From positions 163,246,001-163,310,000 of the forward strand of contig OX597816.1 in the NCBI GenBank assembly GCA_951406725.2: DNA of 64,000 nucleotides, read 5' to 3'. A program made the translations under genes and the position numbers. The notes under the pieces are model-generated. The model had not been told where the DNA came from. It saw only the letters and a program-made list of their open reading frames with translations, and ran no database searches. How positions within the stretch are numbered: the stretch's first letter is position 1; each line of letters begins with the position of its first letter. Shown in pieces: positions 19,888 through 39,872 of this stretch. The stretch comes from Octopus vulgaris. Lineage: Eukaryota.

Positions 19888-20183
19888 TCTTTATATATAA
19901 AAGTGAAGTTGTGTGTCTGTCTCCTACGATTTAGATTCCTAACTACTCCCACATTTTGCGGTGCAGTTTAACCAAAAGCGGGTATCTTATAGTCGTGATT
20001 CATATCGAGCCCTTCTGGGTATTAGCGCGCGTCTACGATAAGTCTACGATTTTTAAAAAATTTACCATTATTTTTTTTCCATTTTTAATGCATTTTTTTG
20101 CTATGTTTTGGCTATAACTCTCTAAAAATGCTTATATAGTTATTTCCCTTACAAACCCGAGGAACGCCGGGCGATACTGCTAG
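19888..20183 (+). mobile_element. Non-autonomous Helitron
   Basis: 5' TCTTTATATATAAAA, 3' hairpin cccg...cggg then CTAG. Inserted between A and T with no TSD. Confidence 0.9.
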
Positions 20184-21176
20184 TTAGTTTATAAACATTG
20201 AATGGTTATGGTGTTCACCATAATAAAATAGTAGTTAAAGGGGTCCGTAGATAAAAAACTTCCACTCTCTTTCTTCCTGTTTCTCTTGTACCTGTATTTC
20301 AAAGGGGCAGTTTTGTCATATACCGTGCACGCTGAATCTCCCCGTGAACTACGTTAAGGGTACATAGATGCATGTATTGCAAGAAACAGGTTTCTTTCTC
20401 AAGCGTTTTACATAGTTCAATCTACACAAGCTAATGTGTGAATAACACGATAGGGATTATGAAAGAATTATTTAAGGCTTTAAATATCGAATGGCTATAG
20501 GGGTGGGGTCCACCAGAATAAAATAGCAATCGAAGGGGTCCGTGGGTAAAAAAAAATGTTTCAGAACCCCTGGGTTAACACCTTCCTCTGAAAATTGCTG
20601 CCTTTGCAACAAAATTTGGACAAAGAAGAAGAAGAAGAAGGAGGAGGAGGAGGAGGAGGAGGAGGAGGAAGAGGAGGAGGAGGAGGAGGAGGAGGAGGAG
20701 GAGGAGAGGAGGAGGAGGAGAGGAGCAGGAAGAGGAGCTTCTTTATTAACCACAATGTCGACGAATAATCTATTCGAGGTACAGGACGATATACTGTGGG
20801 TTTACGTAAAAGCATGTAAAAATTTTAAAAAAGGAAAACAAAAATAATTCACAGATATTATTTTCAGGATTCTGTTATATTCCCTTCATGCTCTTTGCTC
20901 TCTTCTCTCTTTACGTGTTTAATTAATGTAGTCTCAGTTGCTGCTACCGTTGTTGTCATTTCTATAATCAATGTTTGATATTTATATTTGATAGCATTCC
21001 TTTCATCTTCTCCACCATTCCGCTTCTTCTCTCTTTTGTTCATATATCCTCACTTACAGCAATACGCTATTATCTGACTTCACGTAATATAATGATTGAT
21101 TCGTGTCTCTCATTTTTTTCCTCTTAGAGTATTCATTCTATTTGTTTATGTATTGTTTGGGTGTATACGACGGGGG

Positions 21177-35736: not shown

Positions 35737-36766
35737 GTACAGAGTTTGAATTGTTTCTAGTCCTTGTAGTGATGATGGTGGAGGATATCAACTCCTTACT
35801 TGTTTTTCTAAAATGCTCCATAAAGGTTTAATAATATTGAGATCTGGGGATTGTGGTAGCCAGATAAGATGTTCAACTTTACTAGAATGTTCCTCGTGCC
35901 ATTCAGTAACAAATTTAGGTGCGTAAATTGGTGCATTATCATCCTGAAAGATTGTGTTTCCATCCGAAAACAGTTCCGAACCATAGTATGAATTTGATCA
36001 GATAAAATGCTTAGTAGTGTTGACTATTAATTCTGCCACAAAAGGAAACCATTGGGCCGACGAATTTCCAAGATTTCCAAGATATAGTCCCCCAGATTAC
36101 CACAGATTCTCCTCCATGTTTAGCAGTTGGAAGAAAGTAGTCTGGTCCAAATGCTTCTTTTGGCTGTCTCCACACGTATACTCGGCTGGTGGTCGGAAAT
36201 AAGGTAAAGGATGACTCGTCCTTGAAAATAATATTAGTCCACTGTTCTAAGAAGAAAGTAGTGGTTTTCTAATTTCAGCCCCCCGTCAAATCCAGCTTTG
36301 AGCAACTCCCGGCGAACAACTTTTGAGGAAATTGGGTTCTCGGGATGGTCATTAAGCAGTAATTTTTGGAGTTATAATTTTGTGATCCTTCTAACAATCC
36401 TTATCTGAACGTGTTGCTTTTCTTCTGGAGTTTTGTTTCGACAAGAAGTTTTTCCCTCTTTCTCAAATGCTGTCATTACTTTCGAGAGAGTACTTCTTGA
36501 TACACCAAACATTTCAGCTGTTTTCGTTACGCTATCGCCTACCATACGAGCACCAACAATTTGACCTCTTTGAAAGTCTGATAGATTTGTCGTTTTAATG
36601 AATTTTAATTACCTTTTTTTGATGGTATCTGAAAAGAAACAGCAATTTTAGTAAAACATATTAAGCAACACTAATAATGAATTTAAAAAAAAACAAGCTT
36701 TGACGGTTTTATAGATATTTCAAAATTATGATGCTAGGTGTTTCCATTATTTTCTCAAACCCCCTG
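35737..36766 (-). mobile_element. Tc1-like transposon, decayed transposase, one TIR retained
   Basis: TNLSDFQRGQIVGARMVGDSVTKTAEMFGVSRSTLSKV.. (HTH), DESSF, IFQDDNAP and WLPQSPDLNIIKPLWSILE. TIR end ...aaaccccctg followed by TA at 36766. Confidence 0.92.
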
Positions 36767-36819
<53 letters not shown>

Positions 36820-37158
36820 GACCATGACCATGGGATTGCACCTAGAAAGTTACCCTCCTAGACACAAGTCCGGGCAAGGTTGTTTATGGAAGACCAGCAG
36901 TCGCCCATGCATACCAGCCTCCCCTCTCCACGCCACCAGTGTTATCCAAGGGAAAGACAAAGGTCGATACAGCTTGGCACCAGTGACGTCGCAACTCATT
37001 TCTACAGCTGAGTGAACTGGAGCAACGTGAAATAAAGTGCCTTGCTCAAGAACACGAGAGGCTTCTTTCAGTTTCCATCTACCAAATCCACTCTTAAAGC
37101 TTTGGTCGACCCGCCCGAGGCTATAGTAGAAGCAATGGCGGAGGGAGAAACGCAGACA

Positions 37159-37216
<58 letters not shown>

Positions 37217-37316
37217 GATATCAACAATTGAGAGTAAAATTAATTAATTAATCAATTTCACCAAGTGTTCAGTATGTAAAAGGACCATTTAAGGCGAATT
37301 CAAAATATTACATTAT

Positions 37317-37606
37317 TGAAACTTGACACACACATAGCCCAATGTCATAATTCAAAACTAACGCAGCGAAAATTTTGAAAAGTTAACCCCAGTTCTAAAA
37401 AAATCGATAAATTCGACATGGGGTCGAGAATCAAAAAAAACAAACCACAGACTGTCTAGGGGACGCAACTCAACCTTTTTTACTCTCAAAAAAAAATTTA
37501 CCATAATTTTTTTTCCATTTTTTTGCTATTTTTTGGCTATAACTCTCTAAAAATGCTTTATAGTTATTTCCCTTACAAACCTGAGCAACGCCGGGCGATA
37601 CTGCTA

Positions 37607-37607
<1 letters not shown>
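37317..37607 (+). mobile_element. Helitron 3' portion
   Basis: Shares its last ~120 bp with the 19888 Helitron, including the hairpin and CTAG|T. Confidence 0.85.
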
Positions 37608-37635
<28 letters not shown>

Positions 37636-37642
<7 letters not shown>

Positions 37643-38543
37643 ACAATTGAGGGTAAAATTAATTAATTAATCAATTTCACCAAGTGTTCAGTATGTAAAA
37701 GGACCATTTAAGGCGAATTCAAAATCTTACATTATATAATTAGAGCTTAGTAAAATAAATTACTTTGCCACATACTGAACTTAGTAGAAATAGCAGCCAA
37801 AAAATTTTTTTCTTAGCATTTCTACTACTTAAAGAAAATTTCTCTCAGAGCTGTCTGGAGTAAACATTATCTGAGAGAAATTTTCTTTAAGTAGTAGAAA
37901 TGCTAAGAAAATTTTTTTTGCTGCTATTTCTACTAAGTTCAGTATGTGGCAAAGTAATTTATTTTACTAAGCCCTAATTATATAATGTAATATTTTGAAT
38001 TCGCCTTAAATGGTCCTTTTACATACTGAACACTTGGTGAAATTGATTAATTAATTAATTTTACCCTCAATTGTTGATATTATAATTCATTTCTCTCGGT
38101 CATACTGCCTCGGTTCTCGCGGTTTAAATATAATGTTTGCTAGATAGACCACGTGGGTGGAATCGGGAGTGCAGAATTTTACGCCTGCGCATTTTGAATT
38201 TGTTGACACTGTTTAGTTGGAGTGGTTCATCTGAAGCGACAAGTACGCTGATAGGTAAGTTCCTTCTTTTTAGTGTTTCCAAATCCAAATTAAGAAATTT
38301 TGAGCTGACGAAAGAAATGCTGATTTTATTTGGCTAATCTTGAAACGTTGACGTACTCAAACGATCTATGTACTTGTGATATTTTTCTGTATTTACCCCC
38401 AAACCTTCGTGAGCTGTCTGGAGTAAACATTATCTGAGAGAAATTTTCTTTAAGTAGTAGAAATGCTAAGAAAATTTTTTTGGGGCTGCTATTTCTACTA
38501 AGTTCAGTATGTGGCAAAGTAATTTATTTTACTAAGCCCTAAT
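37636..38543 (+). mobile_element. Non-autonomous PLE/retrozyme-like element with inverted plus partial-tandem pseudo-LTR
   Basis: Inverted repeat 37636-37849 vs ~37870-38080, direct repeat 37848-37978 vs 38411-38543, a hammerhead at 38299-38361, and (TA)n at both ends. Confidence 0.8.
38299..38361 (+). ncRNA. Type I hammerhead ribozyme motif, intact core
   Basis: tttgag-CUGACGA-AAGA...UCUU-GAAAC-guugac-GUA-ctcaaa. Stem I is a perfect 6 bp and stem III is ACGU/ACGU. Confidence 0.85.
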
Positions 38544-39872
38544 ATATATATATATATATATATATATGCTTCTTTCAGTTTCCGTCTATCACATCTACTC
38601 ACAAGTCTTTGGTCGGCCCAAGGATATAGTAAAAGACACTTGCTCATGGTGTCACGCAGTTGGACTGAACCCGGAACCATGGTAGTTGGGAAGCAAGCTT
38701 CTTACCACACTGTCACTTCTGCGCCTATATATTTTAAAAAGTTTATTTATTTATTTTTTCCATTGTCAATGTCATCCTGTGAGATGACGTCATGACGTGG
38801 CGATGACATTGTCGATACCGGTTCTGTCGGTGTTCATGTCGCTGAAGAATCAATTTCTTTTGTTTCTTTTTTCTTCTTTTTTTTCTCTTTTTTTTTTGTT
38901 TTGTTTTTTATCTGCTGAAATGAAATCGTCAAAAATTTCAATATTTATAGAAATTATTCTTTTCCGACTTTCTTCAATTATATTTTTCGACTACAATTCC
39001 CAGCAGAACCATTCTACTTCATTATTTTTATTTTTACCAATTCTACTTAATTTATTTTAATTTCTTTATCTTTATTCATAAGAATTAATTGTTAATTAAT
39101 ATTAAATATCACTATTTTCTGCCGACGTTTATGTTAATATTCCCTATTTATTGTTGTTGTGACTGTTGTTGTGGTTTTAGTTAGATTCTTAAGATTTTGC
39201 GAAAACTTTGAACAGACTGTTTATTTTTGTTCCTGCAAATGGCCATATCTCAGGCTGTTCTTCGCATAATTCCAAACATTCTTTAAGATATATATTTTGT
39301 TGATGATGTTGTTGCTGTTTTTTGTTTTCGTTTTTTTCTTTCTTTTTGTCATTGTAGGTGGTGGGCATTGATGCTTTTGTTGTTGGAGTTGTTATCAAAG
39401 TACTTTATTTTCTGCCACGTCAGCCCTGAAGGAGCTAACCCCAGATCAAAGACGTTCCACTCATGACCACAGAGGCTTTCCCCCAGGAAGAGTGAACATA
39501 TGATCAGGTTATATAACACAAGCTACATGTTCCCAGCGTATGCTTTGAGGGAGAGCTGGCTGTTATTTGTACTAAATCGCGTGACTGACAAAAAAGACAA
39601 AATTGATGGTGGTGATACTATTATTATCATTATAGGCGCAGGAATAGCTGTGTAGTAAGAAGCTTGCTTCCCAACCATATGGTTCCGGGTTCAGTCCCAC
39701 TACGTGGCACCTCGGGCAAGTGTCTTCTGCTATAGCCTCTGGCCGACCAGAGCCTTGTGAATAAATTTGGTAGACGGGAACTGAAAGAAGCCCGTCGTAT
39801 ATGTATATTATCCATACAATTTCAAAGTAAGGTGATTAAAATCAAAATAAGCAGCAAGGATATCCAGAGGTA

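Follow-up and report, generated by a model that had tools for sequence, protein, structure and literature searches.

A hammerhead-bearing non-coding repeat of Octopus vulgaris that probably inserts by Penelope-type priming at two sites

Positions 37,636 to 38,543 of a 64,000-nt stretch of Octopus vulgaris DNA (the window) hold a short unit that is repeated in part in direct orientation, is preceded by an inverted copy of part of itself, and lies between (TA)n tracts (Table 1). The question that this locus raises is what kind of element leaves such a structure behind and how its inverted arm is made. With 37848 taken as unit position 1, the direct repeat (37848-37978 against 38411-38543) has a period of 563 and 97% identity over 140 nt, matching the period of about 563 given in an initial annotation made from the letters alone. 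That annotation also described inverted arms of about 213 bp with a spacer of about 20 nt between them. The arms stand, 37637-37849 being the reverse complement of 37870-38080 at about 97% identity, but the spacer does not: the 20-nt stretch at 37850-37869 is unit positions 3 to 22 of the forward arm, and the arms overlap by 2 nt at 37848-37849. The arm ending at site A is 213 nt long and the one ending at site B is 696 nt long, and the two differ at private positions. Their outer ends merge into the (TA)n flanks, which had been noted before and which TRF recovered on both sides. No ORF was found in the unit, where the longest ATG-started frame is 25 aa on the plus strand and 34 aa on the minus strand, in agreement with the earlier view that no credible ORF is present. 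A scan for bacterial promoters, a type of search that does not apply here, was negative. Likewise, no PLE (Penelope-type element) protein match was found within the 64-kb window, and no RT/GIY-YIG ORF lies between pLTRs here.

Table 1. Coordinates of features at and beside the locus, in window numbering
Feature	Position	Strand	Basis
(TA)n target, left	37608..37640	.	TRF
Inverted arm, unit 23-233, RNA sense on minus strand, 3' end = site A	37637..37849	-	sequence comparison
Full 563-nt unit pass (forward arm, unit 1-563), 34% GC, no ORF	37848..38410	+	
Site B, internal copy (unit 133-146), family-wide 3' end point	37980..37993	+	
Site A, internal copy (unit 229-237), other family-wide 3' end point	38076..38084	+	
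Type I hammerhead motif, near-palindromic stem III, predicted cut after 38355	38299..38361	+	motif + sister-family covariation
Terminal redundancy (unit 1-133); forward arm 3' end = site B	38411..38543	+	
(TA)n target, right	38542..38567	.	TRF
Separate 99-bp stub (unit 135-233), ends at site A in another (TA)n	37218..37316	-	

The further arm copy of about 100 bp that had been placed beside a Helitron end is real: it is the 99-bp stub of Table 1, and its other end joins inside a Helitron-like piece. This Helitron-like 3' piece (window 37317-37607 and 20055-20184) terminates in a GC hairpin and CTAG. At 37317 the stub replaces its upstream part, and the same Helitron-like end adjoins retrozyme copies at loci L128 and L211. 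Copies of a common SINE-like repeat lie at window 37061-37112, 38568-38680 and 39679-39791, the last two 84% complementary to each other. On the minus strand, window 36372-36608 holds a 78-aa stop-to-stop frame whose product resembles the helix-turn-helix at the N terminus of Tc1-type transposases; SINE, Helitron and Tc1 are used here as presumptive labels.

A motif-plus-pairing scan of both strands returned one hammerhead match in the 64 kb, at 38299-38361, where the initial annotation's intact hammerhead is thus found as a motif; the locus carries this single hammerhead. Its parts are a 6-bp stem I, a CUGACGA core, stem II, GAAA, and a stem III of ACGU/ACGU. Rfam detected no hammerhead at the gathering score or at E<=5, and its matches at E<=5 were hairpin-type only, caused by the inverted repeat; the call therefore rests on the motif and on covariation between families. 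Across families the core is kept while N7, loops II and III, N17, and stem I vary, and in the older family described below stems I and III differ in sequence but remain paired. The core was intact in 350/351, a partly circular figure, since the search pattern itself required the core letters, and we do not rely on it. Beside the core, the window's family has an A-U pair and the sister families have a mismatch, in place of the usual G-C, so that the predicted cleavage may be weak. In earlier work, 8 of 9 retrozymes assayed did not cleave (2026 preprint, 10.64898/2026.07.22.740005), and hammerhead cleavage was dispensable for PLE insertion in vitro (PMC11167929).

An argument for a retained intron had been drawn from a splice-donor-like AG/GTAAGT at 38255. 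The motif is present but results from a one-base deletion private to this copy: the family sequence at the position is GGTAAAG, with 156 matches against 2 for the donor among fetched, partly overlapping loci, and both of the latter are this locus. No copy with a donor-to-acceptor deletion was found among the fetched loci of the window's family. No RNA run was listed as carrying the unit. Assembled contigs of runs guessed to be RNA cover the unit and contain no splice joint; they join 38410 to 37848 in 4/4 runs, a join that also exists in DNA. Such contigs cannot reveal circles, and we draw on them for none of our conclusions. Because the perfect donor is confined to this copy by a private deletion, the retained-intron argument fails, and we rejected that reading.

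How is the unit represented elsewhere in the genome? Its non-redundant part gave 1521 candidates, and the best 40 of these 1521 are 98 to 100% identical, as would be expected from the earlier claim that the locus is recent. The hammerhead 27-mer had 327 exact genome matches, against 0 for the reversed control. From the window's family we sampled 129 loci, which gave 133 blocks clear of locus edges and 108 after removal of duplicates. The 5' ends of these copies are scattered round the unit, and 65/178 arms are longer than one unit, the longest being 1413 nt. At some loci, same-strand hammerhead pairs occur about 565 nt apart, and arrays of 5 to 13 units are known in the genome. In a sister family, 80% identical, the motif was matched 1116 times and single insertions contain arms that run to as many as six units; arms of 2712 to 3410 nt sit within its two-arm insertions. 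Further subfamilies account for 555 hammerhead matches, and an older family with a 594-nt unit has kept the hammerhead; across families the unit measures 546 to 594 nt. Unit positions 1 to 253 fold far better than shuffles (z = -6.2). Thus, the genome-wide comparison proposed by the initial annotation found copies that are circularly permuted, multimeric, non-coding and recent, in line with its reading of the locus as a cDNA of more than one unit of a non-coding RNA of about 560 nt. With a type I hammerhead in each unit, head-to-tail units, and a short, non-coding sequence of low GC content (563 nt, 34%), the window's family is, by every feature that can be tested in DNA, a non-LTR retrozyme family, and the locus is a genuine retrozyme insertion of recent date. 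Runs under four organism labels, two of which supplied the contigs described above, contain 40 to 71% of the unit's sampled words, so the family is probably common to related species. As a separate observation, L210:861-7806 (G000:C1:71.60 Mb) holds about 12.5 units of 546 nt with N gaps on both sides and may be a collapsed larger satellite or a source array of the sister family.

There are two TA-rich sites at which the arms have their 3' ends, B (unit 133-146) and A (unit 229-237), separated by about 95 nt, and the way in which these ends are combined follows a strict rule. In the window's family, 65/108 unique blocks are tail-out two-arm insertions, and head-in (inward-pointing) pairs were found in none of the 108. 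The 65 comprise 51 A/B, 1 A/A and 0 B/B insertions and 13 with one truncated or interrupted end, whereas random pairing of ends would give this outcome with a binomial p of 1.2e-14. Single arms end at A in 17 cases, at B in 23 and elsewhere in 2, and four of the B-type single arms bear a tiny inverted A stub at their far end. The sister family paired A with B in 20/21 two-arm insertions. Among the further subfamilies (n = 29; most of the 17 added regions were chosen for several hammerheads and not for end type), 27 were A/B, 1 was A/A and 1 was unclassified; the older family (n = 22, all selected for an A end) gave 16 A/B, 0 A/A and 6 unclassified. L341, whose A arm is interrupted by a SINE-like insertion, was scored as A/B. 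Summed over all sets, 137 back-to-back two-arm insertions comprise 114 A/B, 2 A/A and 0 B/B, with an unclassifiable end in 21.

The locus in the window obeys the rule, its inverted arm ending at A and its forward arm at B. A partial tandem with an inverted, 5'-truncated copy and two alternative 3' ends are marks of PLE-type insertion. The initial annotation had counted the partial tandem and inverted 5' end as PLE hallmarks, and this part holds; its treatment of the inverted arm as merely a 5' hallmark does not, since that arm is probably a second primed cDNA with a start site of its own. At L007:2070-2125, a 3' end is made of short repeated pieces of the site A region, which suggests re-priming or template jumps at initiation.

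Do the two arms of an insertion come from the same RNA? With homopolymer runs masked and L210 left out, opposite arms within an insertion differ by 0.8% in the window's family and 0.36% in the sister family, and tandem passes differ by 0.8% and 0.25%, whereas different insertions differ by 1.8% and 5.4%. When diagnostic sites are compared, disagreements number 1/167 and 14/1614 comparisons for opposite arms and 3/113 and 8/3100 for tandem passes (window's family and sister family, respectively), against 27% and 36% disagreement between insertions. This agreement implies that both the arms and the passes of an insertion come from one sequence variant and, consequently, that long arrays are as old as the insertion and not later expansions. 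Shared variants in both arms would also be produced by two RNA molecules of one active source locus or by gene conversion. Among 35 arms from loci chosen regardless of the hammerhead, 26 read through the predicted cut site, 2 stop there and 7 are shorter, implying that the template was a circle or an uncut multimer and not a cut monomer. The overlaps at the junctions are mostly 0 to 13 nt. Neither A and B nor the cut site shows an excess of 5' ends (8/104 at A/B against 7.8 expected), so the stall signature predicted for two RTs on one circle is absent. At seven loci (L182, L196, L219, L043, L133, L162 and L163), inversion junctions were seen in which both arms start at the same unit position, several of them on short palindromes, which suggests pairing of two same-polarity cDNAs.

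The genome also contains coding PLEs, among them at least two intact families that target (TA)n, neither of which is homologous to the unit. The L094 family is an intact two-ORF PLE (a 479-aa frame and a 781-aa RT/GIY-YIG frame) that inserts in (TA)n and has two 3' ends 40 nt apart (504 and 544). By hand tally, every two-arm copy of this family (19/19) has the 504 end on one arm and the 544 end on the other, 11 of the 19 having come from searches that did not require the longer end; its single-arm copies mostly use the shorter end. It is a recently active PLE, represented by the copy at L094:1244-6460 (G000:C6:133.34 Mb) and by some 20 other intact 781-aa frames. Its pLTR carries a hammerhead-like motif (L094:1637 and 6350) in which U3 and A8 of the core are swapped and which lies about 70 nt upstream of the shorter 3' end. 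In a second coding family (L420-L429, e.g., G000:C10:97.80-97.83 Mb), 8/8 full loci have a single 3' end and no inverted arm; the A/B rule may therefore not extend to all PLEs. This family, too, is active, with a period of about 6.2 kb, an 884- to 1008-aa frame, a long CA-rich 3' region and one three-copy tandem; inspection by eye also showed a hammerhead-like motif in which U4 is replaced by C. An autonomous PLE with a homologous pLTR was found neither in the L094 family and related fragments, the 6.2-kb family and the older retrozyme family nor among three odd hammerhead-like matches; the GIY-YIG scan for such a partner covered the best 150 of 6136 candidates.

Taken together, these results make it probable that the 563-nt hammerhead-bearing non-coding unit, with its two back-to-back arms in (TA)n, one with an A end and one with a B end, is a non-autonomous Penelope-type retroposon for which a borrowed PLE enzyme primes both nicked strands on one probably circular RNA. 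The parts of this reading differ in strength. We are highly confident of PLE-type mobilization of the retrozyme, we find double priming very likely in comparison with snap-back, and we regard a circular template as likely in comparison with a linear one.

The same double priming could have used a linear multimeric read-through transcript, or two RNAs of one locus, in which case there would be no circle and the hammerhead would be largely idle. Tandem loci exist, including the N-bounded array at L210, uncut RNA was the main substrate of one PLE in vitro (PMC11167929), and read-through of the cut site is equally compatible with uncut RNA. However, copies of copies of linear arrays should transmit unit-to-unit differences, whereas arms of five to six units are near-identical within an insertion (0.25%) against a divergence of 5.4% between insertions, and tandem passes resemble one another about as closely as opposite arms do (0.25% against 0.36%). 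Furthermore, the hammerhead core is conserved across families despite variable loops and stems, and because each site occurs many times on a multimer, A/B exclusivity would need to come from the protein alone. We consider a linear template unlikely. Snap-back self-priming of the first cDNA (or an antisense template) has been invoked for rotifer Penelope elements, with self-priming from palindromes at inverted junctions proposed in PMC3846280, and in 12/62 and 4/19 two-arm copies, this locus included, the two 5' ends lie within 25 nt of each other; by itself, this locus is compatible with a fold-back. A snap-back copy must lie inside the first arm, yet this is violated in 16/49 and 5/19 A/B insertions (30-nt tolerance), leaving 21/68 testable cases unexplained. 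Arm lengths are uncorrelated (r = -0.06), and snap-back does not account for a copy that ends precisely at the second site and is connected there to (TA)n. Snap-back is contradicted as a general rule, could hold for a minority that includes this locus, and seems to us improbable as the explanation.

The unit might instead be the mere pLTR of a long coding PLE and its copies 5'-truncated fragments, a case that the initial annotation had named as one that would count against it. The end structure and the (TA)n target do match those of coding PLEs of this genome, but at none of the fetched loci does the unit lead into an RT frame; where it extends, it extends into further passes of itself, as many as six, and PLE protein matches near some copies are separate insertions. 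Moreover, none of the examined coding families has a pLTR homologous to the unit (best 150 of 6136 GIY-YIG candidates), and no such homolog occurs among the PLE loci examined, which makes this reading very improbable. Finally, inverted repeats and microsatellite flanks assemble poorly, and DNA elements can bear long inverted arms, but an assembly artefact or a foldback DNA transposon is hardly credible here, given that the arms differ at private positions, the junctions vary from copy to copy, the termini differ in sequence (A against B), and the same rule appears in four retrozyme sets and a coding PLE.

If a borrowed PLE enzyme primes on a circle, as we favor, a locus with two same-strand hammerheads would be transcribed and its RNA cut to a monomer and ligated into a circle. 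Loci fit for this step exist in the genome; the locus in the window, with its single hammerhead, would therefore be a product. A PLE RT/GIY-YIG protein, probably a dimer, would then nick both strands of (TA)n, for which the target preference is observed. One 3'-OH would prime at A and the other at B, giving the observed pairing of ends. Each RT would travel a variable distance, independent of the other as the arm lengths are, past the ribozyme site and for up to the six units observed; on one template, this would require strand displacement. The two cDNAs would be joined head-to-head by repair through short microhomology, to which the junction overlaps correspond. For one PLE, reverse transcription starts at two internal sites, both strands are cut and extended and a dimer is predicted (PMC11167929), and circular templates have been proposed for PLEs (PMC4209133) and for retrozymes (PMC7229834). 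More tentatively, PLE integration in general may be an asymmetric two-primer reaction, in which a dimeric RT/endonuclease acts on one RNA with one internal start site per nicked strand and, where the hammerhead has made that RNA a circle, the two RTs travel round it past one another, displacing strands as they go; we offer this as a possibility that could well prove wrong. If it is true, a single reaction yields the partial tandems, the inverted pLTRs and the tail at one side, and the retrozymes described here preserve, as fossils, the traces of small circular RNAs that were reverse transcribed by a rolling-circle process in an animal germline.

According to the literature, animal retrozymes make circles and are proposed PLE passengers (PMC7229834), PLEs bear minimal hammerheads with a palindromic stem III, and the PLE tail is optional and often at one end only. 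For the PLE that starts at two internal sites and extends both strands, no strand difference was seen in bulk (PMC11167929), and the origin of tandem and inverted PLE insertions and of tails has been named as an open question (PMC8557442). PLE mobilization of animal retrozymes has so far rested on co-occurrence and pLTR similarity (10.64898/2026.07.22.740005, PMC7229834); the retrozyme described here itself bears the PLE integration signature, and its short, young copies are numerous enough for counts to be made. Neither the strict pairing of A with B nor the same-variant test nor a cephalopod retrozyme was found in literature searches or in the accessible text of 10.64898/2026.07.22.740005, PMC11167929, PMC4209133, PMC7229834, PMC8557442, PMC3846280 and PMC13282606, although supplements or older papers on Penelope structure may describe the pairing. 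The one-sided tail was already known qualitatively; the 114:2:0 pairing, matched by a coding PLE, gives a per-molecule prediction. The family-wide end rule ties retrozymes to PLE chemistry and is testable in the existing in vitro PLE system.

In L1 twin priming, as proposed here, a second target nick primes on the RNA and gives a tail-out inversion with microhomology junctions. The two L1 cDNAs represent separate stretches of a single linear RNA, without overlap, and the position of the second site varies. In the octopus copies, by contrast, neither site varies, and the arms have sequence in common, in some cases over more than one full unit.

Metazoan non-LTR retrozymes (Cervera & de la Pena 2020, PMC7229834; Li et al. 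2026, 10.64898/2026.07.22.740005) share with the present family a low-GC non-coding unit, a type I hammerhead, a range from monomers to multimers and many dispersed copies, and PLE mobilization via circular RNA has been proposed for them. Their units are 170 to 400 nt in PMC7229834 and 51 to 972 in the preprint, against 546 to 594 nt here, and circles were demonstrated there, whereas a circle is proposed here. Unlike them, the majority of the present copies consist of two tail-out arms set in (TA)n, with 3' ends at two fixed sites; the terms "inverted," "target site" and "microsatellite" are absent from the main text of PMC7229834. Non-autonomous Chlamys PLEs such as MRC1 (PMC8557442) are likewise non-coding PLE derivatives with pLTRs and multicopy head-to-tail insertions, but they belong to a clade without canonical hammerheads, whose non-autonomous members have a 3' end similar to that of an autonomous partner; no such partner was found here.

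Endonuclease-bearing PLEs, as described in PMC3846280, PMC8557442 and PMC11167929, resemble the octopus family in the partial tandem, the inverted 5'-truncated copy, the AT-rich or (TA)n target, the two RT start sites, and an optional tail on one of the inverted pLTRs. The retrozyme, in contrast, is without an ORF, and its tail is about 95 nt long against 30 to 40 nt in PLEs. The start site of the anole PLE is without homology to the cut DNA (PMC11167929), whereas both sites here are TA-rich and merge with the target. What further sets the octopus family apart from these PLEs is that the near-absolute A/B pairing and the same-variant arms are quantified here.
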